From Caulobacteraceae bacterium (GTDB lineage: Bacteria > Pseudomonadota > Alphaproteobacteria > Caulobacterales > Caulobacteraceae), in contig CANJLQ010000014.1 in assembly GCA_947475735.1 (NCBI GenBank), positions 51,751 through 115,750 on the forward strand: DNA of 64,000 bases, given 5' to 3'. A model generated the notes under the pieces. The model saw only the letters and a list, made by a program, of their open reading frames with translations. It made no database searches and was not told the origin of the DNA. Positions 12,281 through 64,000 of this stretch are shown one piece after another. A program made the translations under genes and the position numbers. Position 1 is the first letter of the stretch, and every line of letters begins with the position of its first letter.

Positions 12281-12286
12281 CCCGGC

Positions 12287-13048
12287 TCAGCGGCCCTCGA
12301 GGAGCGCCACTCGCTCCTCGGGGGTCAGCCGCCGCCAGCGGCCTTCGGGCACGCCGTCCAGCCGGATCGGCCCGATCCGCACCCGCATCAGGTCGGTGAC
12401 CTCAAGGTCCACCCGCTCGCACATCCGCCGGATCTGGCGGTTGCGCCCCTCGGTCAGGACGAAGCGCAGGCGATTCTGCTCCATGCGCGTGACCTTGGCC
12501 CGCTTCAGCTGACGCCCATCCAGCATGATGCCGAACCGCAGCGTCGCCAGCTTCTTCTCGGTCACGTCGCCCGCGACCCGGACAACATATTCCTTGTCCA
12601 GCGTCGACGCCGGCCCGATCACGGCCTTGGCCACCACGCCGTCTGACGACAGCAGCAGCAGCCCGCGAGAATCCTCGTCCAGCCGGCCGATGGGGGGCAG
12701 GGAGGCGTCGGCCGCGGGGACCTCGCCCTCGCCGAGCCGGTTTTCGGCCGTCAGCAGTCGCACGGCGGGGATCTTGCCGGGCTCGGGCTGGCCCGAGACG
12801 TAGCCCACCGGCTTGTTCATCACGATGGTGACGCCCTCGGCCAAAGCGGCTTCGGCCCGGTCGGCCAGCGTCAGGGTCTGCCCGGGCTCGAGCTTCCGCC
12901 CCGCGTCCGTGACCACCTCGCCGTCGATGGAGACCAGGCCGTCGGCGATCAGGGCATCGGCCTCGCGCCGCGAGCAGACCCCGGTCTGGCCCAGCCATTT
13001 GTTGATCCGGACCGGCTCGGGGCCGTCATACAGGCGGGCGAAGGCCAA
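12287..13048 (-). CDS. rRNA pseudouridine synthase (RsuA/RluB/RluF family)
   Basis: S4 domain [33 protein letters not shown] and catalytic motif [19 protein letters not shown]. Confidence 0.88.
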
Positions 13049-48149: not shown

Positions 48150-49910
48150 ATGGGTGGGGCTATCGACACATCGGCCAACGGCTGGGCCATGATCGCTCAG
48201 GTCCGGTTCCGGGAGCTGAAGACCCGGATCGGCATGGCGTGTTTCATCGCGCTCACGGCCTGGTTTCTCACCCGTGGCAACTGGCCGGCGGTCTGGCTCG
48301 GCATCGTGCTGGCCAGCCAACTTCTGGACTGGTTGGTGTTTCGCTCGCTTCGTCTCAAGCCCGACCAGGTCCCATCGAGAGCCTACAAGGCGGCCTTGTG
48401 CGCGATGGCGGCGCTCAACGTCCTGGTCTATTCGAGTATCGCGGCCTACCTCTGGATGGCTGGCGGCGACGAGGGCCGTGTGTTCGCCATGATCCAGGTG
48501 GCCGGCGGATTGCTGCACGTCAGTCTGCACATGCACCATGTCCGGCCGCTGCTTTTCTCGGCCGTGGTCCCTCACAGCCTTTATTTCCTGGGCCTGCCGA
48601 TCATCGACGCCATCGCCACGCGGCGGCCCGAGGGCGCGCTGATCGCCATCGGCGGCGTGCTCTACATGATGCATCTGGTCGTCGCGGTCCGTCAGAGTTC
48701 GTCCACGACCAAGGCCCTGCAGGACGCCAATGACGAGGCCCAGGCCCAGCGTGCCAAGGCCGAGATCGCCAGCGCCGCCAAATCGGACTTCCTGGCGGTC
48801 ATCAGTCACGAGATTCGCACGCCGATGAACGCCGTGATCTCGGCGGCCAATCTGCTCCGCCGCACCCGTCTGGACCGCGAGCAACGCGAACACGTCTCCA
48901 TGCTGCTGGACGCGGGCGACGTCCTGGTCGGCCTGCTGAACGACGTGCTGGACCTGTCCAAGATCGAGGCCGGCAAGATGCAGCTGGAGGCGTCCGAGGT
49001 CGATCTGCGCGACAAGCTGACCTCGCTCGGCCGACTGTGGCAGCCCAAGGCCGAGGCCAACGGCGTGCGCCTGAATATCGAGGTGGACCCGACCGTCCCC
49101 GCCTGCATCCGCACCGACCCGCTGCGGTTCCAGCAGATGCTGTTCAACCTGCTGTCCAATGCGGTCAAGTTCACCGAAGTGGGCACGATCACCGTTTCGG
49201 TCGACTGGCACGCGCCGGACGACCGCCTGATCGTCGCGGTCTCGGACACGGGCTGCGGCATCCCGCCCGAGCGCCTGGCCCGCATCTTCGACAGCTTCGA
49301 GCAGGCCGACATCGGCACCACGCGCAAGTACGGCGGGACCGGGCTGGGTCTGGCCATCAGCCGCCGGCTGGCCGAGATGATGGGGGGGCGTCTGACGGCG
49401 GAAAGCACCGTGGGCGAAGGGTCGGTCTTCACCCTCAGCCTGCCGGTCCAGCCGGTGGTCAAGGCGGTGCCCGCGCCCCGGAACACTTCGATCGACGAGA
49501 CCAGCCTGCGCGGACGTGTGATCCTGGCGGCGGACGATCACGCCGTGAACCGTCGTATCCTGTCGCTGCTGCTGGAGCCGCACGGCTGCACCCTGGTGCT
49601 GGTCGAGAACGGGGCCGAGGCGGTCGAGGCCGCCATGACCCAGGCGTTCGACGCCGTCTTGATGGACATGCAGATGCCGGTCATGGATGGGCTGACGGCG
49701 GCGGCGCGTATCCGGGCCGAGGGGCAGAACCGCCGCACTCCGGTGATCGCCCTGACCGCCAATGCCATGGACGTGCACCGGGCGGCGTGGGACGCGCTGG
49801 GCGTGCATGCCTTCCTGACCAAGCCGATCGACCCGACGCTGCTGGCCGCCACCCTGGCTGAGGCCTGCGCGGTCGTCGAAGCGAACGTGGCCTCGGCGGC
49901 CGTCGCCTAG
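48150..49910 (+). CDS. Membrane-bound hybrid sensor histidine kinase/response regulator
   Basis: Multi-TM N-terminus, HisKA H-box [18 protein letters not shown], HATPase G-boxes (DTGCGI, GGTGLGL), and a REC domain ([14 protein letters not shown]...DMQMPVMDG). No Hpt domain. Confidence 0.88.
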
Positions 49911-50977
49911 GCCCACAGCGCCGACGCGGCCTTCAGATCGATCACCGTCGCGGGCGCGGGGTTCCCGACCACGCCGTCGAACCGGGGCGCCGGGGCGGGC
50001 TGGACCGGATCACCGCTCAGCGTCTGGCGCGCCAGGTTGTGCGGGTGACCGGCCGCTTCTTCGAAGCTCAGAACCGGCGTGACGCAGGCCTCCGTGCCGC
50101 GAAACCGATCCTCCCATTCGCCGCGTGAGCGTTCCGCGAACGCGCGTTCGAATCTCAGGTGCAGGGCCGGCCAGCCGCTGGGCGGGAACTGGGGCGCTTC
50201 GACCGGATCGATGCCCAGCCCGGCCAGCAAGGCCGCATAGAAGCGCGGCTCCAGCGCTCCGACCGCGACGAAACCCCCGTCAGCGCAGGCATAGCAGCGA
50301 TAGAAGGGTGCGCCGCCGTCCAGCAGGTTCGTTCCCCGCTCTGCCGACCACAGGCCGCTGGCTCCGAGCGCATGGAACAGGCTGGACAGGAGCGAGGTCC
50401 CATCGGTCATGGCGGCGTCCACGACCCGGCCCAGGCCCGTGCGTCGGGCCTCGATCACGCCCGCCAGGACGCCGGTGACCAGCATCATCGCCCCGCCTCC
50501 ATAGTCCCCGACCAGGTTCAGCGGCGGGCGCGGCGGGCGGTCGGGCTCGCCCATGGCATGAAGCGCCCCGGTCAGCGCGATGTAGTTGATGTCGTGGCCG
50601 ACGGTAGAGGCGAGCGGCCCGGTCTGGCCCCAGCCGGTGACCCGGCCGAAAACCAGGCGGGGGTTGCGGGCCTGACAGTCCTCGGGCCCGAGACCCAGCC
50701 GCTCCAGCACGCCCGGCCGAAAGCCCTCGATCACCGCATCGGCGCGGGCGACCAGGTCGAGGACCGTGGTCCGGTCCTCGGGCGATTTCAGATCGACCGG
50801 AACCGCCGTCCGGCCGCGATGCAGCACCGCTCCGCCGACGTCGCCGAAGGCCGACGCCTGGTCCGCGCGGGTCAGACGCAGCACCTCGGCCCCCAGGTCG
50901 GCCAGCATCATGCCGGCCAGGGTCACCGGACCCAGACCGTCGAACTCGACGATGCGCACCCCTGCCAGTGGCTTCAT
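49907..50977 (-). CDS. Family III CoA-transferase (CaiB/BaiF; alpha-methylacyl-CoA racemase-like)
   Basis: MKPLAGVRIVEFDGLGPV..AGMMLADLGAEVLRL, GHDINYIA. Confidence 0.85.
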   Translation of the reverse strand: MKPLAGVRIVEFDGLGPVTLAGMMLADLGAEVLRLTRADQASAFGDVGGAVLHRGRTAVPVDLKSPEDRTTVLDLVARADAVIEGFRPGVLERLGLGPEDCQARNPRLVFGRVTGWGQTGPLASTVGHDINYIALTGALHAMGEPDRPPRPPLNLVGDYGGGAMMLVTGVLAGVIEARRTGLGRVVDAAMTDGTSLLSSLFHALGASGLWSAERGTNLLDGGAPFYRCYACADGGFVAVGALEPRFYAALLAGLGIDPVEAPQFPPSGWPALHLRFERAFAERSRGEWEDRFRGTEACVTPVLSFEEAAGHPHNLARQTLSGDPVQPAPAPRFDGVVGNPAPATVIDLKAASALWA

Positions 50978-51074
50978 TCGTCCTGCCTTCTTGATCCGCG
51001 GGGTTGACCCCGGACCGGTGATGAACCAGAAGGCGCAACCGCGAAACAGCCAGTCCGTTTCCCGGTCGTGGTGC

Positions 51075-51151
51075 GCGTCCTTAGCTCAGTTGGTTAGAGC
51101 ATCTGACTTTTAATCAGAGGGTCCTCGGTTCGAGCCCGAGAGGACGTACCA
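51075..51151 (+). tRNA. tRNA-Lys (anticodon UUU)
   Basis: Hand-folded cloverleaf. Acceptor GCGTCCT/AGGACGT, D-arm GCTC-AGTTGGTTA-GAGC, anticodon arm TCTGA-CTTTTAA-TCAGA, variable GGGTC, T-arm CTCGG-TTCGAGC-CCGAG, discriminator A and encoded CCA. Confidence 0.93.
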
Positions 51152-53468: not shown

Positions 53469-55094
53469 TCAGGCGGCGCGTCGATGCGAGGACTTGGGAG
53501 CGACCTTTTCAGCGCCCGGCTCCAGAGCCAGGGCGGCGTTCATGGCCATGCGCAGGCGTTCCGGCTTGATCGGCTTTTCCACCACGGCGGCCATGCCGAT
53601 CGACAGATAGTGTTTGGCGTCGTCCGGGTCGGCGTTGGCCGTCAGGGCGACGATGGGGATGGCGCTTTCCGGCCCGGTCAGGGCGCGGATGGCCTGGGTT
53701 GCCTGGACGCCGTCCATGCGGGGCATCTTGATGTCCATCAGGATCAGATCGAACGGCCGGGCCTGGACGGCCTCCAGCGCCTCCAGGCCATCCTCGGCGG
53801 TCTCGGAGGTGCAGCCGAACATCTCGCACAGGGCCTGGGCCACGACGCGGTTGGTGGCGTTGTCGTCGACGATCAGGACGTGCGGCGTCGCCTGGAGTTC
53901 CCAGTCGGGCAGGGACGAGACGTTGGTTGCCGCCTCAGCCGGGGCCATCGACAAGGGCGCGGTCAGGTCGAAGGCGAAGGTCGCCCCGCGGCCCTCGTTG
54001 TTTTCGGCCCAGATCCGTCCTTCCAGGCGCTCGATGATCTGGCGACAGATCGACAGCCCCAGCCCGGCCCCGTCGGGCCCCGAGCCGTGGACGAAGGGTT
54101 CGAAAATGGCGTCCACGCGATCGGCGTCCACGCCCGGGCCATCGTCGCGCACGCGCGCCTGCAAGTGCACCTTGCCGTTGTCCGACCAGGCCCGCAGGCT
54201 GGCCTCGACGACGCCGTTCCGGGCGAACTTCAGCGCATTGCCGATCAGGTTGTTGAACACCTGCTTCAGGCGGACGCCGTCGATCTCGGCGGCCAGTTCG
54301 GTGTCGCCTTCATAGCCGACCATCAGCCGGACCTGATCCTGTGATGCGCGCGGCGTCCACAGCTGCTCGATGTCGTCCATCAGCGACCGGAGCGGCGTCG
54401 ATGCCGGGTTCATCTCCAGCTCGCCGGCCTCGGCCCGCGACAGGTCCAGCGCGTCCTGGAGGATGCGCAGCAGGGTCTCGGAACTGTCGACGATGGTCTG
54501 GACGTGGGCGTGGGCGGCGTCGTTCAGCGGCTGGCGGCGCAGCAGTTCGGCGACGGCGAGCACGCCGTTCATGGGCGTGCGCAGTTCGTGGCTCATGATG
54601 GCCAGGAACTGGCTCTTGGCACGGGCGGAAGCGAGGGCCTGGGTGCGGCTGTCGGTAAGCTCGCGGGCCTGGTCGGCGAGTTCCTGATTGCGGTTGCGCT
54701 GCTCGGCGTTGACGGCCTGGAGCAGGCTGACGGCGGTACCGACGCCGCGATACCGCCCGTCGCGCGTGACGATGAAGCCCCGCATCAGGGTGCCGGGACC
54801 GCTCTTGACCAGGATGTCGCAGAAGGCGTCGATGCGGACGCCCGCGTCCACCACGGCGGGCTCGGTGTCCATGATCATGGACACCGGTCGATTGGCATAT
54901 AGCGCATGGCCGAAGGGACCGGCGATCTTTAGCAGGAAGGCATTGCGTTCGACGAGACCGATCGGACGGCCATCCTCGACGACCGGGATCACCAAAGTAT
55001 CGGGCTCAGCCTGGAACCGCGCGAAAATCTGGCCGGCGTTCGCCGAGGGGGCGACGGGCTCGGCACGTTCCGTCAGGATCTCGATGGTCGGCAT
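53469..55094 (-). CDS. Cytoplasmic hybrid sensor histidine kinase/response regulator with N-terminal CBS-like module
   Basis: CBS-like N-terminus (LVIPVVEDGRPIGLVERNAFL), H-box SQFLAIMSHELRTPMNGV, HATPase G-boxes, and REC (VLIVDDNATNR..DIKMPRMDG). No Hpt domain. Start at ATG 55094. Confidence 0.85.
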   Translation of the reverse strand: MPTIEILTERAEPVAPSANAGQIFARFQAEPDTLVIPVVEDGRPIGLVERNAFLLKIAGPFGHALYANRPVSMIMDTEPAVVDAGVRIDAFCDILVKSGPGTLMRGFIVTRDGRYRGVGTAVSLLQAVNAEQRNRNQELADQARELTDSRTQALASARAKSQFLAIMSHELRTPMNGVLAVAELLRRQPLNDAAHAHVQTIVDSSETLLRILQDALDLSRAEAGELEMNPASTPLRSLMDDIEQLWTPRASQDQVRLMVGYEGDTELAAEIDGVRLKQVFNNLIGNALKFARNGVVEASLRAWSDNGKVHLQARVRDDGPGVDADRVDAIFEPFVHGSGPDGAGLGLSICRQIIERLEGRIWAENNEGRGATFAFDLTAPLSMAPAEAATNVSSLPDWELQATPHVLIVDDNATNRVVAQALCEMFGCTSETAEDGLEALEAVQARPFDLILMDIKMPRMDGVQATQAIRALTGPESAIPIVALTANADPDDAKHYLSIGMAAVVEKPIKPERLRMAMNAALALEPGAEKVAPKSSHRRAA

Positions 55095-55245
55095 ACTGGG
55101 CCGAAACTCCCTGCTACTGTAGGACCTTAGACCACGACCGTTTTCAGAAAGGTTAAGTCGGCCCGCAGGGAATCCGAGCCCTTTGCCGCCTGTCACAAAA
55201 TCCTAGCGAACGAGGTTCAGCCTGGGTCAACGAGGGAGGTCACCA

Positions 55246-56013
55246 ATGATCCGTCTTCTGGCTCGACTGAGCGCGCCGGTGCTGGCCGCAGCCACCCTCG
55301 GCATGGCCACAGCGGCGCAGGCCCAGGATCGCCCCACCGTCGTGCTGGTGCACGGGGCCTGGGCCGATGGTTCCTGCTGGAGCGAGGTGATTCCCCATCT
55401 GCTGAGCGCCGGTCTGAAGGTCGTCGCGGTCCAGAACCCGCTGTCCAGCCTCGAAGCCGACGCGGCGACCGTCACGCGCGCCATCGAGGACCAGTCCGGT
55501 GACGTCGTTCTGGTCGGGCATTCCTACGGCGGGGTGGTGATCTCCGAGGCCGGAAACCATACGAAAGTCCAGTCCCTGGTCTATGTGGCGGCCTTCGCGC
55601 CCGGGCCGAACCAGTCGGTGAATACGATCCTGTCGGCCTTTCCTCAGCCTGAGTGGTTCAGCAGCCTGCACGCGGACGCTGGCGGCTGGGTCACCTGGCC
55701 GGCCGAGCCGATGGCGCGCTGGTTCTCGGCCGGACTGCCTGCGGAGCAGCAGGCGGTCCTGGCGGCGACCCAGCACCCGACCTTCTTCGGCGTCAATGAC
55801 AACGCGATCGGGGCCACGGCCGCATGGTCGACCAAGCCCACCCACTATGTGATCGCCGACGGGGACCAGATCATCCCCGCGCCGCTCCAGACCCATTTCG
55901 CGACCACGATGAACGCGACGGTGACCCACGCCGACGGGGGTCACCTGATCATGCTGGCCCAGCCCCGGGTCGTGGCGGACGCCATCATCGCAGCGGTCGA
56001 GGCAGCGGACTGA
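55246..56013 (+). CDS. Secreted alpha/beta hydrolase (esterase-like)
   Basis: Signal peptide ending AAQAQ, VVLVHGAW, and the canonical nucleophile elbow GHSYGG. Confidence 0.8.
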   Translation: MIRLLARLSAPVLAAATLGMATAAQAQDRPTVVLVHGAWADGSCWSEVIPHLLSAGLKVVAVQNPLSSLEADAATVTRAIEDQSGDVVLVGHSYGGVVISEAGNHTKVQSLVYVAAFAPGPNQSVNTILSAFPQPEWFSSLHADAGGWVTWPAEPMARWFSAGLPAEQQAVLAATQHPTFFGVNDNAIGATAAWSTKPTHYVIADGDQIIPAPLQTHFATTMNATVTHADGGHLIMLAQPRVVADAIIAAVEAAD

Positions 56014-56020
56014 GGCCTGT

Positions 56021-56440
56021 TCAGCCGCCGTTGGCCCGGTGGGCGATGGAGGCGGCGTCGGCCCAGATCTTTCCGCCGACCCACAGGCCGATGGAGGGGG
56101 TGACGTCGGTCACCTCCACCTCGGCATACAGGTCCGAGGTGATATAGGGGTCGCCCTTCATCACGCTCCACGCCTCGTCCACGTCGCCGGCGCGGACCAG
56201 GAAGTAGGAGCCGCTGAGCGCGGTCTCGCCGGGGCGGCGCATCGGCCCGGCGACGACGTAGCGGCGCCAGTTCGCCTCGACGTGGGCCAGATGACCCTCC
56301 AGACGCTCGACCCGGCGGGCCGGGGCGTCGGGTCCGTCCTTGCACACGAACAGGAACAGCGGCGTCTGATCCTTGGGAACATGAGGCGGGCTGTCGTCGG
56401 GCTGGGGGGCGATCGGCTCTTGCATCGGTCGGGAATCCAT
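56021..56440 (-). CDS. YciI-family (dimeric alpha/beta-barrel) protein
   Basis: LFLFVCKDGPDA...R...HL.H......VVAGP..., DPY pattern. Start ATG 56440 (alternative 56425). Confidence 0.7.
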   Translation of the reverse strand: MDSRPMQEPIAPQPDDSPPHVPKDQTPLFLFVCKDGPDAPARRVERLEGHLAHVEANWRRYVVAGPMRRPGETALSGSYFLVRAGDVDEAWSVMKGDPYITSDLYAEVEVTDVTPSIGLWVGGKIWADAASIAHRANGG

Positions 56441-56447
56441 CGGCAAA

Positions 56448-56465
56448 TGGTATAGACTTATACCA
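56448..56465. promoter_or_regulatory. Perfect palindrome TGGTATA-GACT-TATACCA in the 41-bp YciI/MFS divergent gap (site 1 of 2)
   Basis: Read directly at 56448-56465. 16/18 identical, with an identical AAA 5-prime flank, to 61374-61391. Either an operator or a bidirectional extended -10 (TGnTATAGA / TGnTATAAG). Confidence 0.6.
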
Positions 56466-56481
56466 ACTGATCGGGACGGGC

Positions 56482-57795
56482 ATGCAAGCACAGTCTGGGG
56501 CGAAAGCCGGGTACGGCGAGTTCAAGCTGGGCTGGCCCGTGGTGCTGTCGGCCATGCTGGGCATCGGGCTCGGCCTGTCGCCCCTGCCGTTCTACACCAT
56601 CGGCATCCTGGCGCCCGAGCTGGCCAAGGAGTTCGGCTGGGGCTTCGCCGAGATCCTGGGCGGCCTGCCGATCATGACCTTCGCCGTGCTGATCGCCAGC
56701 CCCCTGGTCGGGCTGCTGGCGGACCGGATCGGCGTGCGAACGGTCGCGCTCGTGTCGCTGCTGCTGTTCGGCCTGGCCTTCGCGGGGTTCGCGGCCAACA
56801 CCGGCGACATCCGCATGTTCTATGCGACCTGGGGGATCATGGCCCTGGTCGGGGCGGGGACCCTGCCGGTGACCTGGACCCGGGCGGTGAACAACCGGTT
56901 CGACATCCACAAGGGCCTGGCGCTGGGTCTGTCCCTGGTCGGGACCGGCCTGTTCGGCTTCGCGTGCAAGCCCTACACCGCCTGGCTGGTCGAGGAATTC
57001 GGCTGGCGGGTGGCCTATCTGGGCGTCGCCGCCCTGCCGCTCTTGGTCGCCCTGCCGATCGCCTTCATCTTCTTCCACGACGTGGGCGGGCGCACGGTGA
57101 CGGCGGCCGAGCGGCGCGTGGCGGACGCCGAACGCAAGGCCGTGACGCCTGGCCTCAGCTTTGGGCAGGCGCTGAAAGACTGGCGCTTCTGGGTGCTGGC
57201 GGTGGCCTTCGTGCCGATCAGCTTCGCGGTCGGCGGGCCGATCCCGAACATCGAGAACATCCTTCGGTCCAACGGCTTCGAGGCGGGGGACGTGGTCACA
57301 CTGGCGTCGCTGATCGGCCTGTCCGTGATCGGAGGGCGGTTGTTGGGCGGCTGGCTGATCGACCGCATCTGGGCGCCCGGCGTCGCCTTCGTGCTGTTGA
57401 GCGCGCCGGCCGTGGCCTGCTGGCTGCTGGCTCAGGGGACGACCGACCCGGTCATCGCGGGCCTGTCGATCGTGCTGATCGGCTTCGCGGCGGGGGTCGA
57501 ATACGACCTTATGGCCTTCATGGTGGCGCGCTATTTCGGGCTGAAGAGCTACGGCGGCATCTATGGAGCGCTTTACGGCTTCTTCGCCCTGGGCGCGGGG
57601 ATCGGGCCGGTGATCTTCGGCCAGTATTTCGACCGGACCGGCAGCTATGAGACCATCCTGCTATATTCGGCCGTGGGGCTGGTGGCGGGGGCGGCGCTGC
57701 TCTTGCTGATGGGCAAGTATCGGACCTTCGGCGGCGACAGGACCGAGGCCGTCGCAGCGGCGGAGCGGACGGCGGACCCGGACTTCGCGGCCTGA
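56482..57795 (+). CDS. MFS transporter
   Basis: 437 aa, 12 TM, D-R-x-G-x-R-like loop (LADRIGVRT). Confidence 0.85.
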   Translation: MQAQSGAKAGYGEFKLGWPVVLSAMLGIGLGLSPLPFYTIGILAPELAKEFGWGFAEILGGLPIMTFAVLIASPLVGLLADRIGVRTVALVSLLLFGLAFAGFAANTGDIRMFYATWGIMALVGAGTLPVTWTRAVNNRFDIHKGLALGLSLVGTGLFGFACKPYTAWLVEEFGWRVAYLGVAALPLLVALPIAFIFFHDVGGRTVTAAERRVADAERKAVTPGLSFGQALKDWRFWVLAVAFVPISFAVGGPIPNIENILRSNGFEAGDVVTLASLIGLSVIGGRLLGGWLIDRIWAPGVAFVLLSAPAVACWLLAQGTTDPVIAGLSIVLIGFAAGVEYDLMAFMVARYFGLKSYGGIYGALYGFFALGAGIGPVIFGQYFDRTGSYETILLYSAVGLVAGAALLLLMGKYRTFGGDRTEAVAAAERTADPDFAA

Positions 57796-57819
57796 GCGGC
57801 GGTTGGGCCCGAAGCGTGT

Positions 57820-58054
57820 CATCACAGCGAGCACAGCGAGCACAGCGGGTTCACAGCGGACATGGCGGGACCGAGCGGACGGTCAGATCGCCGACCGCGA
57901 AACCGTGAACACGGAAAGAATGCGGCTGCGCCGCGATGATTGATCGACGCCTGGCGTCGATCCTGAAAACGCGAAAGGTGGGCGTCAAAGGCCGATGTGG
58001 ACCTGGGCGCGGTCCCGCCGTGTCCGCTGTGAACCCACTGTGGTCGCCGTGATG
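57820..58054. repeat. 235-bp structured intergenic element with 45-54-nt imperfect terminal inverted repeats (MITE/REP-like)
   Basis: The left arm 57820-57873 pairs with the right arm 58010-58054. The core 27 nt (57847-57873 versus 58010-58036) is 26/27 complementary. The extended arms are 41/45 complementary, with one extra 9-nt unit (AGCACAGCG) on the left. Nested perfect palindrome GATCGACGCC-T-GGCGTCGATC at 57942-57962. Confidence 0.7.
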
Positions 58055-58058
58055 AACC

Positions 58059-59474
58059 TTACTGGCCCAATCCGTCGCTGGCGTGTGCGTCTGCCCACGC
58101 TTCGAAATCGCTCCATCTTCGGTGGGCGAGAAGCAGGCTGACCGCGCGGCCGTGGGTGGCGGCGAGATCGGCGGGTCGGTCGATCCGGTGAGCCGGCTCG
58201 CGGCGATGCCAGGGGGCGAACAGCCTCTCCCATGACGCGATGCGGAAGGCGCGGACGAGGTGCGCCCCGTCCCACTCAGGTTCAAGCGAAGGCACAGCAT
58301 CTGGCAGGCCGAGGACGCGACCGGGATCGGCGGGCCCGCCGGTCAGGGCGCAGGCGAGGACGGCACCGGCGCCGACGCCGGCGACCTCGGCGTCCGACAG
58401 GTTCAGCGCATCGAGGGCGGCGCGGACCGAGCCGGGCCAGTCGATGGGGCCGGCCCAGCCCCCGGCGGAAAGGCCGTGGCCGGGCAGGTCCAGCGCGATG
58501 ACGGGGCGGTCCCGTGGCGCGGTCAGGTCGGCGGCGCAGCCTCCGGCGTCATGAAGCATGACGAGGGGGCGGCCGGGGCCACCCGACAGACGCTGAAAGG
58601 CCAGTCGCTCCTCGCCCAGCCAGACGAAGCCCTCCCCGATGCCGTCCAGGGCGATCGTCCCCGGATGGGCGGCCAGATGCTCGGCCGCACCCGCATGAAG
58701 CGCCGGTGCGTCGGCGAAGATCGTGCCGCGACCCGCCAGACCCGGGCGGTCCAGATGAGGGGTCAGGATATCCGCGGCGGTGCAGGCGATCAGGGCGGAT
58801 GCCGGCAGTCGGTCGGCGACGGCCTCGGCGCGGAAGGTGAAGGCGGCGTGGTAGACGGGGCGGTAGGCGTCGCCGGTCGCCAGCAGGTCCATCGCGTTGG
58901 CGTGGATGTGCTCAGGGCTGGAGACGGCCATCGCCATCCGCTCGGCCGGGTCGGTGGAATGCCAGGGGAAGAAGACGGTCTGGGCCTCCATCCGCGCCCA
59001 CAGCCAGGCCATGTGGGAGCCGTCCCAGCGGGGCTCGAACGGCGGGAGGTAGTCGGCGAGGAAGCGGGCGCGCTCGGCCTCGGTCCAGGCGGGCAGGCCG
59101 TCGCAGACCAGGGCGGCGGTGCTGTGCGGGAACAGGGTGGCGAAGGTCGCGGCGGTCGCGGCCCCGGTGTGGAAGCCGTACAGGCCGACGCGTGCGAGGC
59201 CGAGCGTCTCGGTGAGGCGATGCAGCGCGCGGGCGAAGTCGGCGCTGTCGGGATCGGCGATCGGCAGGGGGGTGGAGGTGCCTGCGCCGGGCGTGTCGGG
59301 AGCGAGGGCGGTCAGGCCGCGCGCGGCGATCGCCTGACAGACCGTCTCGACGGCGCGGGAAGACTGGGGCGAGCCGTGGACGACGAAGACCGCCGGGCCG
59401 CGACCGTAGCGGCGGATAAGGACGCGGCGGCCGTCGACGACGACGAAGGCGCGCTCTCCGCCTGGCCGGGTCAC
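58059..59474 (-). CDS. Internally duplicated alpha/beta-hydrolase-fold protein (two tandem modules), apparently without a canonical nucleophile
   Basis: Two HG-type modules (VFVVHGSPQSS..DTPGAGTS.. and LVMLHDAGG..DLPGHGLS..). Each is followed by the repeat EP.WDG.H...F.PWH. The elbows read GFHTG and GVGAG. Start at GTG 59474 with a GTGA overlap to the upstream stop; the longer ORF extension is Arg-rich shadow. Confidence 0.65.
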   Translation of the reverse strand: MTRPGGERAFVVVDGRRVLIRRYGRGPAVFVVHGSPQSSRAVETVCQAIAARGLTALAPDTPGAGTSTPLPIADPDSADFARALHRLTETLGLARVGLYGFHTGAATAATFATLFPHSTAALVCDGLPAWTEAERARFLADYLPPFEPRWDGSHMAWLWARMEAQTVFFPWHSTDPAERMAMAVSSPEHIHANAMDLLATGDAYRPVYHAAFTFRAEAVADRLPASALIACTAADILTPHLDRPGLAGRGTIFADAPALHAGAAEHLAAHPGTIALDGIGEGFVWLGEERLAFQRLSGGPGRPLVMLHDAGGCAADLTAPRDRPVIALDLPGHGLSAGGWAGPIDWPGSVRAALDALNLSDAEVAGVGAGAVLACALTGGPADPGRVLGLPDAVPSLEPEWDGAHLVRAFRIASWERLFAPWHRREPAHRIDRPADLAATHGRAVSLLLAHRRWSDFEAWADAHASDGLGQ

Positions 59475-60469
59475 ACCCGGACCAGGGTCTTGCCGACATT
59501 CTCGCCGCGCATGAGACGCTCCAGCTGGGCCCCGGCGGAGTCGAGGCCCTGACCGATGTCCTCGGCGATGGTCAGGCGGCCGTTCTTGACCCAGGGCTCG
59601 GCCAGCGCGGTCCACTCGGCCCAGCGCGGATAGAAGTCGTAGACGACCAGGCCGAAGACGGCGGCGCGCTTGCCGACCAGGGGGCCGATGGCGGTGACGG
59701 CCGGACCGGCATCGGCGTGGTAGTGGTCGGCGAGGCCGCACAGGACGACGCGGCCGTAGAGCTTGAGATTTCGGATGCCGACCGCCAGCTGGCCGGCGCC
59801 GACGTTCTCGAAATGGATGGTCGAGCCGGGCGCGACGGCGGTGGCTACCTGCGCCTCCCAGTCCTCAGCGCGGTAGTCGATGCAGGCCTCGAAGCCATAG
59901 CGGTCGACGACGAGGGCGCATTTCTCCGGCCCGCCCGCGATGCCGACGGCGCGGCCGCCGAGATTGCGGGCGATCTGGCCCGCGACCCCGCCGACCGTGC
60001 CCGCCGCCGCGTTGACGGTCAGAAGGTCACCCGCGCCGGTCTTCGCCAACTGGGTCATGCCGGCCCATGCTGTGAGGCCTGGCATGCCCAGCACGCTGAG
60101 ATGCAGCGACGGCGCGATTTCGGTCGAGACCTTGCGGGCGGTGTCAGAGCGGACCCAGGCCAGGTCGGTCCAGCCGGCCTCGACCACCACCCGGTCGCCT
60201 GGCGCGAAGGCGGGGTCATGGCTGGCTTCGACCTCGGCGACGCAGAAGCCGGGCAGGGGCTCGCCGGGGGCGGGGGCGGGCTCGCCCATGTGACGGCCCC
60301 GGATGCGCGCGCCGATGTAGGGGTCGAGCGAAAGGAACAGGGGGCGGACCCTCAGCCAGCCTTCGCCTTCCGGCGGGGTGCGGTCGCGGGTCACGACGGT
60401 GAAATCGTCGGCGACGGGGACGGCCTCGACGGGCCGGGTGAGGACGACTTCTCGGGCTCGATCGCTCAT
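59471..60469 (-). CDS. NADP-dependent MDR-superfamily oxidoreductase (YncB/CurA/alkenal-enone reductase type)
   Basis: LSLDPY.., GMPGLTAWAG, and the NADP loop AAGTVGGVAGQIAR. ATGA overlap with the upstream VOC gene. Confidence 0.82.
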   Translation of the reverse strand: MSDRAREVVLTRPVEAVPVADDFTVVTRDRTPPEGEGWLRVRPLFLSLDPYIGARIRGRHMGEPAPAPGEPLPGFCVAEVEASHDPAFAPGDRVVVEAGWTDLAWVRSDTARKVSTEIAPSLHLSVLGMPGLTAWAGMTQLAKTGAGDLLTVNAAAGTVGGVAGQIARNLGGRAVGIAGGPEKCALVVDRYGFEACIDYRAEDWEAQVATAVAPGSTIHFENVGAGQLAVGIRNLKLYGRVVLCGLADHYHADAGPAVTAIGPLVGKRAAVFGLVVYDFYPRWAEWTALAEPWVKNGRLTIAEDIGQGLDSAGAQLERLMRGENVGKTLVRV

Positions 60470-61344
60470 GCTTCCACGACCTCGACCAGGGTTCCGTCGG
60501 GAGCGCGCAGGGTCCCCGCGCGCTTGCCGCCATAGATGGTGCCGTCGCGGGCGACGGGTGGGGCGATCCAACCCTTCAGCGCGTCGAAGTCGGGGTGGCG
60601 GAAGGTGGTGATGGCAATGCCAGGGGGCAGGGCGCCGGGCTCGGTGGGGCGCGGCGTCGTCGCCTCCGGATACTGGTCCAGCTCCAGGAAGCAGTCGCGG
60701 CCGTGGACCATGGTGGCCAGGGTGTGTTTGGTGTCGGCGGGCAGGTCGAAGGCCGCGTTGATCATGGTGTAGACGAGATCCATCGAGCGGCCGGCCGACA
60801 GCTTCAGCTCCGTCTCGAACCAGTCCAGCGAGGCCTGAAGGTCGGAGCAGGCCAGGACGATGATGAACAGCTTGTCGATCACGCTGTCCGCGCGGGGCAG
60901 GTCGTAGGCGGGCAGGTTGTCCCGGATCTGGGTCAGATAGACGATCTCCTGATCCGGCCCCTTCACCTGCATGGGGAAGATGGCGGGCAGGCCGTCCAGT
61001 TCCTTCGGCGGGCCGATGATCTGGAAGGGGGACCGCTCCATGCGGGCGTTCACGGCGTGGGTGTCCTGGGTGCAGATCTCGATGGCCGCCCAGCCGTAGG
61101 TGCGGAGTGGCCTGTAGTCGGGAGGCGTCGCGCCTTCCACGAAGCGCAGGAAGACGTCCGCGTCGGAGGCCGGGCGGCAGACCACGAACGCACGCCCGGC
61201 CGAGGCGGGGCAGCCCCACCCGCCGGCGAGGTCGGAGGGGACGCGGCCGCGCTCCACCACCTCATAGTCCAGCCATTCGACATAGCGGGCCGCGGTCGCC
61301 TTCGGGTCGGCGACGGTCAGAGTGGCGGCGCGCAGGAGTTCCAT
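60466..61344 (-). CDS. Two-module VOC (glyoxalase/extradiol-dioxygenase-fold) protein, unknown substrate
   Basis: Two repeats of the beta-alpha-beta-beta-beta style N-termini (ATLTVADPKATAARYVEWLDYEVV and LFIIVLACSDLQASLDWFETELKL). Assignment is by pattern only. Confidence 0.5.
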   Translation of the reverse strand: MELLRAATLTVADPKATAARYVEWLDYEVVERGRVPSDLAGGWGCPASAGRAFVVCRPASDADVFLRFVEGATPPDYRPLRTYGWAAIEICTQDTHAVNARMERSPFQIIGPPKELDGLPAIFPMQVKGPDQEIVYLTQIRDNLPAYDLPRADSVIDKLFIIVLACSDLQASLDWFETELKLSAGRSMDLVYTMINAAFDLPADTKHTLATMVHGRDCFLELDQYPEATTPRPTEPGALPPGIAITTFRHPDFDALKGWIAPPVARDGTIYGGKRAGTLRAPDGTLVEVVEA

Positions 61345-61373
61345 GAGGTCGCGATTCCGGGCTCGGTTCGAAA

Positions 61374-61391
61374 TGGTATAGATTTATATCA
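61374..61391. promoter_or_regulatory. Palindrome TGGTATA-GATT-TATATCA in the VOC/DUF1330 divergent gap (site 2 of 2)
   Basis: Read directly at 61374-61391. Same motif as 56448-56465. Roughly centred in the 79-bp gap (30 nt from the VOC ATG, 33 nt from the DUF1330 GTG). Confidence 0.6.
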
Positions 61392-61423
61392 TTTGAGCGC
61401 GCTAGGGTGGGCATAGCAAGGGG

Positions 61424-61732
61424 GTGCGCGTGGCTGCCTATATGATCGTCCTGGCCGATATCGCGGATCGAGACGCCTTCATCGGCGGCTACGGCAAGGC
61501 GGCCGCGGCCCTGATCGAACAGCACGGCGGGCGCTATCTGGTGCGGGCACCGGGCGTCCAGCTGCTAGAGGGCGACTGGGGCGACGGATCGTCCGCCGTC
61601 ATCTCCGAATGGCCCGACATGACGGCGCTCCGCGCCTTCTGGGACAGCCCCGAATACGCCGAGATCAAAAAGCTGCGCGACGGCATCGCCGATTGCCGCG
61701 TCTGGGCCATCGAGGCCCCCAACCGACCCTGA
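61424..61732 (+). CDS. DUF1330 domain protein (dimeric alpha/beta-barrel fold)
   Basis: AAYMIVLADIADRDAF..Y...A...IEQHGGRYLVR......LEGDW......VISEWPDM.ALRAFWDSPEY is the typical DUF1330 pattern. Confidence 0.8.
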   Translation: MRVAAYMIVLADIADRDAFIGGYGKAAAALIEQHGGRYLVRAPGVQLLEGDWGDGSSAVISEWPDMTALRAFWDSPEYAEIKKLRDGIADCRVWAIEAPNRP

Positions 61733-61751
61733 ACCTGACTGGAGGAAGACG

Positions 61752-62645
61752 ATGATCCGCACCCTGACCGCCCTGGCCGCGCTCGCCGCCGCCGCCCTGC
61801 CGATCTCTGCGAGCGCGCAGAGCATCGACCTGTCGACCCCCGCCGGCGCGATCGCGGCGAACCGCAAGGTCCAGTGCTCGACCGTGGACGGCGAGCCGGT
61901 GGTCTATCACTGGTCCGGCCGGGTGTTCGCCCGTTCGCCAGGCGAGCCGGACCGCCATATCTTCAACGTCGAGGGCATGAACGTGCGCCAGTGCGGCACG
62001 GTCACCGACCCCGTACGAGGCACCGGCTATCGCCTCGTCTCGCGCGAGCTGATGCTCTACCTCGACCCGCGTACCAACCAGATCCTGCGCAGCTGGACCA
62101 ACCCCGTGACCGATCAGGTCGTCGAAGTGGTCCATGTCGCCAACGACCCGGTCAACTCGCGCCCGACCTATGAGCGCAACGCGGACGGCTCGCCCTTCAC
62201 GTTCAGTGGCCGGGTCAATCAGGGCAAGGTGTTCCTGAACTTCGAGGCCCCTTTGTTCTATGTGAACCCTCTGGGCGGCGACTATCAGGAGTATGTCGGC
62301 AACCAGTACCACGCGATGGAGATCTTCGACTTCTCCATGCAGGAGGCCGACCTGATCGACGCCTCGCGGCCCCGCGCCGACCCGGCCATCGCCTGGGTGC
62401 GGATGTCGCCCTGGCTGCCGTGGATGCGGATGGGCGGGCGGCCCGGCGGCCTGGTGTTCAACGCGGTCGGCCAGACCATGTCGAACGGCATCGACGGCCT
62501 GCCGCAGGTCCTGAGGGACGAGATCTCGGCCAACTACCCCGACTATGTCGCCCCGCCGCCCCTGACCGATACGCGGCCCAACGAGACCAGCTGGACCTAT
62601 TTCAAGAAGATCTTCGACGCCGAGCGAGCGGCGGCGGCGCAGTAG
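61752..62645 (+). CDS. Secreted DUF1838-family protein
   Basis: Signal peptide MIRTLTALAALAAAALPISASA. VVYHWSGRVF..., FNVEGMNVRQC pattern recalled from DUF1838. Confidence 0.65.
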   Translation: MIRTLTALAALAAAALPISASAQSIDLSTPAGAIAANRKVQCSTVDGEPVVYHWSGRVFARSPGEPDRHIFNVEGMNVRQCGTVTDPVRGTGYRLVSRELMLYLDPRTNQILRSWTNPVTDQVVEVVHVANDPVNSRPTYERNADGSPFTFSGRVNQGKVFLNFEAPLFYVNPLGGDYQEYVGNQYHAMEIFDFSMQEADLIDASRPRADPAIAWVRMSPWLPWMRMGGRPGGLVFNAVGQTMSNGIDGLPQVLRDEISANYPDYVAPPPLTDTRPNETSWTYFKKIFDAERAAAAQ

Positions 62646-62666
62646 CCGCCGGCATCCGGACAAACG

Positions 62667-62697
62667 AAAACGCCCGGCCGCGAGGCCGGGCGTTTTT
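62667..62697. terminator. Rho-independent, potentially bidirectional terminator
   Basis: AAAA-CGCCCGGCC-GCGA-GGCCGGGCG-TTTTT. Perfect 9-bp GC stem and 4-nt loop, with a T-run on the plus strand and an A-run (a T-run on the minus strand) upstream. Lies 22 nt after the DUF1838 stop. Confidence 0.9.
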
Positions 62698-63135
62698 GCG
62701 TTGGGGCGAGGAAGGTCGCCTTACTTGATCTTGCCCTCTTAATCGGCTCTTCTCTTTTTCGTGATGCCATCGTTTGCTCCTGATTGATCTCATACGCCTA
62801 AATACGACGATCCGCGACAGTCTTTGCTCAAGGTTGATCGGTCGTGTCGATCCTTGTCCGGCGTGCGAGTCCTGATGCGCCGTGCACTCTTCCGCGCTCA
62901 TCGACGGCGGGGTCTTGACCGACTGAGCGGTCCTGGATCCGTCGCGGCGCATGTCGGCATCGAAGTTGCGGGGCAGCATCACAGGCACTCCGGCGTGGTC
63001 CTGGCTCGCGCCGGCCACAGGCAAGATATCGTGCTTCCCGCATTTCTGGTCTGCATCAGTCCTCATCCGCTCGGGGCGGATCTCCATGACGCGATCAGCC
63101 GGGTCAGGACCTGGCGGTATCGCGCGCGTTCGGGG

Positions 63136-64000
63136 TCAGGCGTAGGCGCCCAGCAACTTGATCTCCTTGGCGGTGGCGGCGCCGCGGACGGCGTCATCGA
63201 CGTCGGGGCGATCGGCGTAACAGGTGCCGTCGCGCCACATGGCGTGCATCACGACGGCGAGCTTTCGGGCCACCGCCACGACCGCCTTCTTGTGGCAGCG
63301 TTTGGCGATCTTCTCACCCCAGGTCTTGAGCGCGGTCTTGCCTTTGTAGCGGGTCAGCATGGCGCTGGCGGCCTCGTAGAGCGCGCGCCGGACGTCGGGA
63401 TCGCCCGCCTTGCTGATGCGGCCCTGGATGTCGATCGAGGTGCCCGACTGCCATCGCTTCGAGGTCAGGCCGAAGTAGGCGCCGACGTCGCGCGACCGTT
63501 TGAACCGGGTCGGGTCATCGACGGCGGTAAGGAAGGTCATGGCCGTCACCGGGCCGACGCCGGGGATGGCCATGAAGCGCCGGCACACCTCGTCCTGGGC
63601 CACCCAGCGGACGACCAGATCGTGCAGCTTGAGGTATTCCTTCCACAGCGCGGCCCGGGCCGTCAGCATGCAGTCCATCAGCTCGGCGGTCAGGGCGTCG
63701 TCGTCGCAGGCGTCGCGCACGGCCCGGTCGAACGCCCCGCGTCCCACCTTGCCGAGCTTGATCCCGAAGCTCTTCAGCGAATGACGGATGCTGTTCTCCA
63801 GATCGAGGAATTTGCGCTTCAGGTTGCGGCGCTGGATCAACAGCAACCGCAGCCGGTAGGCCGCGTCGCTCTTCACATAAGCCTGTTTGAACCAGCCGGT
63901 CCGCATGATGTGCGCCAGGCCGAGCGCGTCGTTGGCGTCGGTCTTGTTGCGCTGGGCCGACATCGCCGCGCGGACGTTGCGGGTCTCCAGGCACACGGCC
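63136..64000 (-). mobile_element. IS110-family transposase gene, C-terminal about 288 codons (N-terminus beyond window end)
   Basis: Motifs KTDANDA, FMAIPGVGPVTAMTFLTAVDDPTRF, YFGLTSKRWQSGTSIDIQGRISKAGDPDVRRALYEAA and VAVARKLAVVMHAMWRDG are typical of the IS110/IS1111 DEDD transposase plus Transposase_20 domains. The ORF is open at 64000. Confidence 0.88.

Follow-up and report, generated by a model that had tools for sequence, protein, structure and literature searches.

An operator-linked gene module in a Caulobacteraceae genome as a probable arm of a widespread, uncharacterised catabolic regulon

Introduction

The maleamate pathway and the itaconate cluster of Pseudomonas are the described catabolic systems closest to the subject of this article, a gene cluster at positions 56021-62645 of a 64,000-nucleotide stretch of DNA from a Caulobacteraceae bacterium (assembly GCA_947475735.1, contig CANJLQ010000014.1, positions 51,751 to 115,750 of the forward strand), which we call the window and number from its first letter. 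The maleamate pathway (NicC/NicX/NicD/NicF/NicE), which serves nicotinate, nicotine and picolinate, proceeds in order through a monooxygenase, ring cleavage, a deformylase, an isochorismatase-type amidase and an isomerase. The itaconate cluster comprises Ict-Ich-Ccl, Mcd, MmgE/PrpD and the small VOC protein PA0880, a 2-hydroxyparaconate lactonase of 127 amino acids (aa) (PMC9875883), and is extended to methylsuccinate by PA0879 and PA0881 (PMC12290011). For single components the nearest described proteins are the two-domain VOC dioxygenases PcpA, LinE and MhqO, which cleave the ring of hydroquinones, together with the monomeric two-domain glyoxalase I and, for its control, the GntR repressors of the HutC subfamily (HutC, NagR/DasR, PhnF), whose operators in catabolic regulons are palindromic. 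The cluster itself encodes a YciI-like protein, an MFS transporter, an alpha/beta-hydrolase-fold protein, an MDR reductase, a VOC protein and members of the DUF1330 and DUF1838 families. We argue that these genes probably form four transcription units (YciI; MFS; VOC-MDR-hydrolase; DUF1330-DUF1838) under one shared operator, and that together they serve uptake and early transformation as one arm of a catabolic regulon that is widespread but uncharacterised, a reading that we favour while holding it well short of established.

In this article, we draw on the gene content of the window, on the gene neighbourhoods of related loci and on predicted structures to assign roles to these proteins. A first-pass annotation, made from the sequence alone, had described the same block as a self-contained island that processes an enone, quinone or aromatic compound, next to an IS110 element, and it knew of no characterised pathway with this combination of genes. 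Neither did we find one: public annotations are generic or hypothetical, DUF1838 and DUF1330 are mentioned only in passing in unrelated papers, the literature on imidase/maleimide and maleamate/citraconate metabolism yielded no description of the cluster, and none was found on plasmid pJE1, which carries a version of it. The kind of system is already known, a bacterial catabolic regulon under a GntR-type operator; what is uncharacterised are several of its enzyme families. Overall, the cluster offers a tractable and widely distributed orphan pathway rather than a surprising new principle.

Gene content was determined from a listing of open reading frames (ORFs), inspection of the gene junctions, and Pfam and NCBIfam hidden Markov model (HMM) scans of the window; all of the genes and features that the first-pass annotation listed are present (YciI, MFS, an inverted repeat, hydrolase, MDR, VOC, DUF1330, DUF1838, a terminator and IS110). 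For synteny, homologues of the VOC protein were aligned and 80 loci were fetched, one per species, with 10-kb flanks on each side; the window proteins served as tblastn queries to count neighbours up to 10 kb from VOC, and the ORFs of all 80 loci were clustered into families. Related loci totalling 1.32 Mb were searched for the palindrome described below with two mismatches allowed and compared with shuffled sequence. The loci of DUF1838 homologues (n=3), chosen independently of VOC, served as a second anchor. Throughout the text, numbers with the prefix L denote loci, numbers with the prefix c denote clustered families, and the sign <> stands between divergently transcribed genes.

Conservation of the module

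The genes of the cluster are co-conserved across dozens of species. VOC is accompanied by at least one other gene of the set in 68 of the 80 species, by at least two of the six other families in 48 loci and by at least three in 27. Taken family by family, the MDR reductase was found near VOC in 43 of the 80 loci, DUF1330 in 39, the MFS transporter in 37, the long form of the hydrolase in 30 (a count that rises to 45 with the single-domain and fused forms), YciI in 17 and DUF1838 in 14, against counts of 1 and 2 for two genes that flank the cluster in the window, those of the hydrolase ABH255 and of a histidine kinase. Position is conserved as well: MDR is the immediate downstream gene of VOC in 41 of 75 loci, DUF1330 its divergent upstream neighbour in 24 of 76, and YciI is divergent from MFS in the loci of 17 of the 80 species. 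Brevundimonas, Phenylobacterium and other Caulobacterales retain the full order, DUF1838-DUF1330<>VOC-MDR-hydrolase with MFS<>YciI; there are shorter versions in Hyphomonadaceae, Parvularculaceae and Hellea and VOC-MFS pairs in Woeseiaceae and Steroidobacteraceae.

The partnership between reductase and hydrolase takes further forms. In six Caulobacter species (L040, L044, L047, L049, L052 and L053; ~11050-13025) the hydrolase domain with its G-x-H-T-G elbow is fused to an MDR reductase in one protein of 613-649 aa, whose MDR part is PIG3/Zn-ADH-like and whose gene lies beside and convergent to VOC. Three gammaproteobacterial loci that lack MDR have an OYE/FadH-type reductase in its place. The first-pass annotation had proposed a coherent transport-plus-transformation module and had recommended a check of gene neighbourhoods in other genomes, where random juxtaposition would tell against it. 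That check speaks for the module, since the VOC-MDR adjacency and the hydrolase, DUF1330 and other neighbours recur, with the Caulobacter fusion and the OYE/FadH replacement in addition, and the synteny across 80 species is matched by a shared cis element.

These observations also bear on an origin of the block by chance juxtaposition of unrelated genes or as a mobile island brought by the IS110 element, which we regard as hardly credible. An IS110 element does stand 90 nt beyond DUF1838, and a strain-specific inverted-repeat element lies within the block. Gene order, overlaps and operator are nevertheless kept in many species without any insertion sequence (IS), the IS interrupts a neighbouring gene, rpmG, that is intact at that position in the closest relatives L007 and L008, and G+C content is high and uniform over the region (~0.62-0.75 per 500-bp window across 50-64 kb).

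A shared operator-like palindrome

An 18-bp palindrome, TGGTATAGAnTTATAyCA (TGGTATA-N4-TATAyCA), has only two matches in the 64 kb of the window, where none is expected by chance. The first, TGGTATAGACTTATACCA at 56448-56465, is centred in the 56-nt divergent intergenic region YciI<>MFS, and the second, TGGTATAGATTTATATCA at 61374-61391 (extended AAATG..CATTT), lies in the 85-nt divergent intergenic region VOC<>DUF1330. A palindrome shared within the block had been noticed before and thought to bracket it; it does occur twice, but because its sites lie in these two spacers it marks divergent promoter regions and not the borders of the block.

In relatives the same motif stands at MFS<>YciI and at DUF1330<>VOC, and its extended form, AAATGrTATA-N4-TATAyCATTT, is found in a block conserved upstream of VOC in Brevundimonas and Phenylobacterium. 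The search of the related loci returned 90 sites, compared with 2.6 in shuffled sequence. Sites lie upstream of the YciI gene in 11 of the 12 loci with the clustered YciI family, and, counting in each case the loci that have the gene, upstream of a methyltransferase-like gene (c3) in 21 of 44, of DUF1330 in 14 of 33, of MFS in 14 of 36 and of a HapK/REDY-like gene (c17) in 11 of 21; for VOC itself the count is 17 of the 80 loci. Further sites occur at c7<>c8 and at the promoters of LeuC, of a TonB receptor and of a regulator gene (c44). The loci anchored on DUF1838 contain perfect copies, and pJE1 has weaker copies upstream of VOC and in the hydrolase<>MFS spacer. By its behaviour across these loci, the palindrome is a candidate conserved operator.

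The regulator that would recognise it is suggested by the company it keeps. Gene c44 encodes a GntR protein with a UTRA domain (HutC type) and is located inside the regulon in nine loci as well as on two sphingomonad plasmids, whose copy is the orthologue of c44 and 60% identical to the gammaproteobacterial copies; palindrome-like sites adjoin the gene. As in the HutC subfamily, there is a GntR + UTRA gene within the regulon of other genomes, and the window palindrome shares with the operators of that subfamily GT...AC half-sites centred in divergent promoters. Unlike the described HutC-type regulons, the window holds no regulator gene, and binding to the palindrome is putative here. We infer that a HutC-type repressor encoded elsewhere in the genome binds both window palindromes. 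The earlier remark that the block has no cis regulator thus holds as regards a regulator gene, but not as regards the cis element, given the operator-like palindrome in the window and the HutC-type gene in the regulon of relatives. A scan for the sigma-70 consensus found no promoter, which is uninformative in an alphaproteobacterium, whose promoters depart from this pattern.

The probable regulon in other genomes

Judged by the gene content of the related loci, the module is one arm of a regulon of ~20-30 kb in relatives and not the self-contained island of the first-pass annotation. A 411-aa methyltransferase-like protein of the S-adenosylmethionine-dependent type (c3) and its 121-aa helical partner (c1) recur in 43-44 loci, directly upstream of VOC. 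In 11 loci the immediate upstream neighbour of VOC is instead a GlcD-like FAD oxidase (c34). By the count of upstream neighbours the c3-c1 pair was recorded in 21 loci, and c3-like/c1-like pairs recur elsewhere in gammaproteobacterial loci. Also recurrent are the HapK/REDY-like protein (c17), an SDR protein (c11), one or two PuuE-like deacetylases (c7) and a GST (c31); LeuCD-like hydratases with an HMG-CoA-lyase-like or ICL/PEP-mutase-like lyase; an isochorismatase-family amidase, a nitrilase-type amidase, hydantoinase A/B and a cyclic amidohydrolase; an aldehyde dehydrogenase, an amine oxidase and, in Caulobacter loci, an FAD monooxygenase (FAD_binding_3); and small and secreted VOC proteins, TonB-dependent receptors and several unknown families. 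The relatives of the isochorismatase-family amidase in the Protein Data Bank (PDB) include 3ot4/3uao and 4l07/4l08, which we take to be the maleamate amidases NicF and Ami. The search from the second anchor agrees with this picture: homologues of DUF1838 lie beside TonB receptors and LeuCD-like, ICL/HMGL-like and PuuE-like genes, with the palindrome, and in two of the three cases the families are the same as in the VOC-anchored regulon.

A near-identical 27-kb version of the regulon is carried by the plasmids pJE1 (L087, NZ_KM017071.1 2023-30904) and pTomTYG65b (L088), with LeuCD pairs, PuuE-like genes and MFS carriers, two of each, besides one TonB receptor and the regulator of HutC type, all under generic or hypothetical gene names. 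The hosts are sphingomonads and the plasmids mobilizable or conjugative, and because such plasmids carry it the pathway is horizontally mobile. In all, the regulon occurs in at least 80 species, among Caulobacterales, Hyphomonadaceae, Parvularculaceae, Niveispirillum, Sphingomonadales (plasmids), Steroidobacteraceae and Woeseiaceae, with many bacteria of water and soil among its carriers. It points to a substrate that is common in the carbon and nitrogen turnover of waters and soils yet has gone unrecognised.

The regulon of relatives also contains genes like RipC/Ccl (204 bits), RipB/Ich (231 bits), acyl-CoA dehydrogenase (Mcd) and family III CoA-transferase (Ict), all scoring below equivalog cut-offs and co-clustered in 24 of the 80 loci. 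The module could accordingly be seen as a peripheral arm of itaconate-family C5-dicarboxylate metabolism, in which it would turn derivatives of itaconate, mesaconate or citraconate, either unsaturated ones or lactones (for example of paraconate type), into substrates of Ict/Mcd/Ich/Ccl and VOC would be a lactonase or isomerase, not an oxygenase. The co-clustering itself favours this, as do the palindrome upstream of c7, the gene at which the Ccl operon begins (3 of 36 loci), the carboxylate-carrier type of the MFS protein, and the association of MDR with the Ccl/Ich/Mcd arm (17 of 42 loci with MDR, 7 of 38 without; Fisher p = 0.05), which is weak and ignores phylogeny. The described cluster includes a VOC protein too, and MmgE/PrpD genes lie nearby in L083 and pJE1. 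The likeness ends there: the window has none of Ict, Ich and Ccl; the regulon includes further functions (transport, reductase, amidase) and many unknown families; and the window VOC, with 292 aa in two domains, is much larger than PA0880 as that protein is described. Many loci, moreover, lack the Ccl arm yet have nitrogen-releasing amidases, hydantoinase, PuuE-like proteins and amine oxidase, for which itaconate derivatives give no need. MDR enzymes of the double-bond reductase family also normally require a C=C bond activated by an aldehyde or ketone. We hold this explanation to be plausible in itself but quite unlikely.

The same neighbours weigh on a second alternative, defence against electrophile or quinone stress, in which a detoxifying CurA/YncB-type reductase, a glyoxalase-like VOC, YciI, the hydrolase and an efflux MFS protein would be induced by enones, quinones or aldehydes. 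In its favour, CurA and YncB are members of the alkenal/one reductase family to which the MDR protein is assigned, glyoxalase I and GLOD4 are among the best structural matches of VOC, and neither the window nor L007 or L008 has a catabolic arm adjacent to the module. Elsewhere, VOC usually stands with CoA-transferases, lyases, amidases, TonB receptors and a HutC-type regulator, as is typical of nutrient catabolism; its linkage to the other genes of the set in most species, the same operator-like palindrome at the catabolic arms, the transfer of the set as a 27-kb block on sphingomonad catabolic plasmids, and a score of MDR far below the cut-off of the CurA model all count against a defence system, and we consider one very unlikely. 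Because the conserved neighbours are amidohydrolases, LeuCD-like hydratases and CoA modules for C4/C5 dicarboxylates, they argue less for electrophile detoxification or a generic quinone role than for the catabolism of an unsaturated cyclic compound that probably contains nitrogen, such as a cyclic enone or N-heterocycle degraded to (methyl)maleate or methylsuccinate. Of the enone, quinone or aromatic chemistry proposed at first, the double-bond reductase thus stands, while the neighbours indicate the catabolism of nitrogen-containing cyclic compounds.

Proteins of the VOC-MDR-hydrolase operon

The VOC protein (60466-61344, minus strand) is the first product of the operon. Its two-domain VOC fold emerged from structure prediction with AlphaFold2 (AF2) and Foldseek, one of the checks that the first-pass annotation had recommended: Pfam Glyoxalase scores only 17 bits, below cut-off, and a profile search found no significant match among PDB sequences. 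The AF2 model (predicted local distance difference test, pLDDT, 91.6) has the secondary structure of four beta-alpha-beta-beta-beta modules in two domains, and Foldseek relates it with probability 1.0 to two-domain VOC proteins, among them glyoxalase I, GLOD4, MhqO-like proteins and PcpA, at template modelling (TM) scores of 0.55-0.67. H214, E221, H250 and E288 are invariant and lie, by alignment and predicted secondary structure, on strands of the C-terminal domain that match the canonical VOC metal-ligand positions; the N-terminal domain retains E89 only, with no His at the first canonical ligand position. The protein shares with PcpA, LinE, MhqO and the two-domain glyoxalase I the overall fold, with the C-terminal His/Glu residues as candidate metal ligands, and it differs from them in its 11-17% identity and in the missing first ligand His. 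The family has 1512 homologues, with 64-93% identity among the best 120 and 90-93% identity to Brevundimonas spp.; by protein identity the window thus belongs to a Brevundimonas-like alphaproteobacterium.

VOC overlaps MDR by ATGA, and MDR overlaps the hydrolase gene by GTGA; these stop/start overlaps, noted at the outset, were borne out at the junctions, and from them we take the three genes to be translationally coupled. The MDR protein (59471-60469, minus strand) has the Pfam domains ADH_N_2 and Rossmann-type ADH_zinc_N (64.9 and 49.1 bits, both above cut-off) and matches allyl-alcohol dehydrogenases and double-bond reductases of the PDB over its full length (residues 6-331; E about 1e-56 to 1e-45). 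It falls into the LTB4DH/PTGR1/alkenal-one double-bond reductase subfamily (also described as LTB4DH/PTGR1/CurA-like) of the MDR superfamily, and its assignment as an NADP-dependent double-bond reductase is solid by sequence. An orthologue of CurA it is not, as NCBIfam NF058644 gives 237 bits against a cut-off of 440.

The alpha/beta-hydrolase-fold protein (58059-59474, minus strand; 471 aa; Pfam Abhydrolase_1 51 bits) is internally duplicated, as had been proposed: residues 135-180 and 387-432 are repeats with 37% identity (E = 2e-8), of which the second copy is truncated and degenerate, with its motifs lost and an elbow of G-V-G-A-G. Among PDB sequences it is closest to epoxide hydrolases, fluoroacetate dehalogenases and Cif, in keeping with the epoxide hydrolase/haloacid dehalogenase-like branch of the fold. 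The alpha/beta-hydrolase core is present, with an HGxP oxyanion motif (HGSP) of which H33, S35 and P36 are invariant. In 42 homologues, and likewise in the Caulobacter fusion proteins, the elbow reads G-x-H-T-G and neither His102 nor Thr103 varies; it lacks the Ser, Asp or Cys nucleophile (Sm-x-Nu-x-Sm) of classical alpha/beta hydrolases. This suggests a His-elbow alpha/beta-fold family with non-canonical catalysis. The family also conserves Y204, D235, W159 and R161.

YciI, MFS, DUF1330 and DUF1838 proteins

The MFS transporter (56482-57795, plus strand; Pfam MFS_1 115.6 bits) is of the monocarboxylate or oxalate-formate type. Its best NCBIfam matches are lactate/oxalate-formate-type carriers (SfMCT 141 bits, OFA 102 bits, both below cut-off), and because of this resemblance its sequence suggests an anionic substrate. 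The divergent YciI-like protein (56021-56425, minus strand; Pfam YCII 34.5 bits) has 134 aa from the start MQEPIAP, a length shared by the gene call on the identical contig L001.

DUF1330 (PF07045; 61430-61732, plus strand) is a protein of 100 aa with a GTG start after AAGGGGG; it scores 83.8 bits with Pfam, above the gathering threshold, and matches 2fiu among PDB sequences (E = 1.7e-5). DUF1838 (PF08894; 61752-62645, plus strand; 244.9 bits, likewise above the gathering threshold) appears to be secreted, with an N-terminal signal-like peptide ...ISASA|QS. Its AF2 model (pLDDT 86) has a disordered signal region and a predicted soluble beta-barrel; among PDB sequences it had no match.

A proposed pathway and its weighing

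On the regulon reading, a HutC-type repressor supplied from elsewhere in the genome would sit on the palindromes and be released by the substrate or an intermediate. The MFS carrier would import an anionic (carboxylated) cyclic unsaturated compound, and where a genome encodes TonB receptors, the DUF1838 barrel in the periplasm may contribute to uptake. The two-domain VOC protein would open or isomerise the ring at a putative metal site of its C-terminal domain, with H214, E221, H250 and E288 as candidate ligands; the NADPH-dependent MDR enzyme would saturate an activated C=C bond of the product; and the His-elbow enzyme would cut an ester, amide or formyl bond. DUF1330 and YciI, small alpha+beta-barrel proteins, could be accessory enzymes of isomerase or tautomerase type. 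The expected end products would be acids of (methyl)maleate, maleamate or methylsuccinate type, and modules known from other genomes (amidase, LeuCD/lyase and Ict-Mcd-Ich-Ccl) would complete their breakdown.

By analogy, most of the recurrent neighbours fit both the maleamate and the Ict-Mcd-Ich-Ccl parallels. With the maleamate pathway the regulon shares an FAD_binding_3 monooxygenase (in Caulobacter loci), VOC as a candidate metalloenzyme of ring-opening type with an adjoining alpha/beta-fold enzyme, an isochorismatase-family amidase, and a GST that is possibly a cis-trans isomerase. It differs in that ring cleavage would be by VOC and not by a NicX-type enzyme, that His replaces the nucleophilic Ser of the alpha/beta-fold enzyme, that LeuCD-like hydratases and lyases stand in place of maleate isomerase, and that MDR is added; a molybdenum hydroxylase is seen in one locus only, and the amidase and hydratase genes are outside the window. 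A more specific and tentative proposal, which we think unlikely, is that the module is the entry arm of a widespread, undescribed HutC-controlled pathway for fragments of five- or six-membered unsaturated N-heterocyclic rings. In it a new VOC subfamily would replace NicX-type cleavage, with alkyl-substituted maleimides or maleamates (as from tetrapyrrole breakdown) or dihydroxypyridines as candidate substrates; the His-elbow enzyme and the MDR ene-reductase, fused in Caulobacter, would process the ring-opened product; and the carbon would flow to citraconate/methylsuccinate routes through LeuCD-type hydratases, HMGL-/ICL-type lyases and Ict-Mcd-Ich-Ccl. If so, this would be the first functional context for DUF1838 and DUF1330 as well as for the HapK-like protein and the methyltransferase-like pair.

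Several points weigh against the regulon reading itself. The amidase, LeuCD and Ccl arms are neither in the window nor beside the module in the closest relatives L007 and L008, so that the module may work by itself in this lineage or supply pathways encoded elsewhere. No match to the HutC-type, FadR-type or LysR regulators of related loci was obtained by tblastn anywhere in the window, and the pairing of operator and repressor is drawn from position only. Because the sampled species are phylogenetically related, the counts exaggerate the number of independent events, and ORF calling and clustering were crude. The VOC fold cannot separate dioxygenase, isomerase, lactonase and glyoxalase chemistry, and its proposed metal ligands derive from alignment and predicted secondary structure, not from a metal-bound structure. 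With an elbow that lacks Ser, Asp or Cys as nucleophile, hydrolysis by the alpha/beta-fold protein is itself uncertain. As for DUF1838, Foldseek against the PDB gave no meaningful match (TM < 0.3), a structural check thus uninformative for this protein, and one homologue is located in an unrelated housekeeping context.

The regulon reading would nonetheless provide a first functional context for DUF1838, DUF1330, a VOC subfamily that Pfam misses and the His-elbow alpha/beta-fold family. It defines a testable regulon with an operator, a candidate HutC-type regulator and transporters, and the operator eases both regulon prediction and inducer screening.

Flanking and intervening elements

A 220-nt inverted-repeat element at 57832-58051 separates the convergent ends of MFS and the hydrolase gene. 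Its 59-nt arms (57832-57890 and 57993-58051) are 81% complementary with inner hairpins, and the fold has -145.8 kcal/mol (z = -8.3). The element is single-copy in the window and missing from the equivalent spacer in relatives; being unique to this strain, it is ruled out as a shared element that subdivides the block, and it is probably an incidental insertion or terminator-like spacer outside the functional module. An Rfam search of 55000-64000 (E <= 1) gave only insignificant matches around the terminator and none for this element.

Beyond DUF1838, a G+C-rich hairpin with flanking A and T runs, AAAACGCCCGGCC-GCGA-GGCCGGGCGTTTTT, is seen at 62667-62697. It is kept in L007 and L008, and a simple terminator scan did not list it; we read it as a predicted terminator that serves, in both directions, DUF1838 and the convergent rpmG gene (ribosomal protein L33). 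The IS110-family element (62736-64000, minus strand), whose transposase at 63136-63996 carries Transposase_20 and DEDD_Tnp_IS110 and which continues past the window end, sits four codons before the rpmG stop. Comparison with L007 and L008, in which rpmG is uninterrupted at this position, located the junction at 62735|62736; the remnant of rpmG on this side is its last 16 nt, CTTACTTGATCTTGCC, on the minus strand at ~62720-62735. Because it is inserted in this neighbouring gene, the IS110 element does not delimit the module, and to judge from the junction it is incidental to it. The 400-nt non-coding tail 3' of the transposase (62736-63135) has an unremarkable fold (z = -1.75) and no Rfam match.

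To the left of the module lie the genes of ABH255, a secreted alpha/beta hydrolase of 255 aa (55246-56013), and of a hybrid histidine kinase/response regulator (53469-55196), with no palindrome; both were ruled out as members of the module, since no relatives other than the nearest Brevundimonas ones have them alongside it. A tblastn search with the Ccl-, Ich-, Mcd- and CoA-transferase-like proteins of relatives found none in or near the island, the only match being a distant family III CoA-transferase at 49907-51085. This gene is ~5 kb left of the module, its product is 32-35% identical to the CoA-transferases of the regulon, and no palindrome is nearby.

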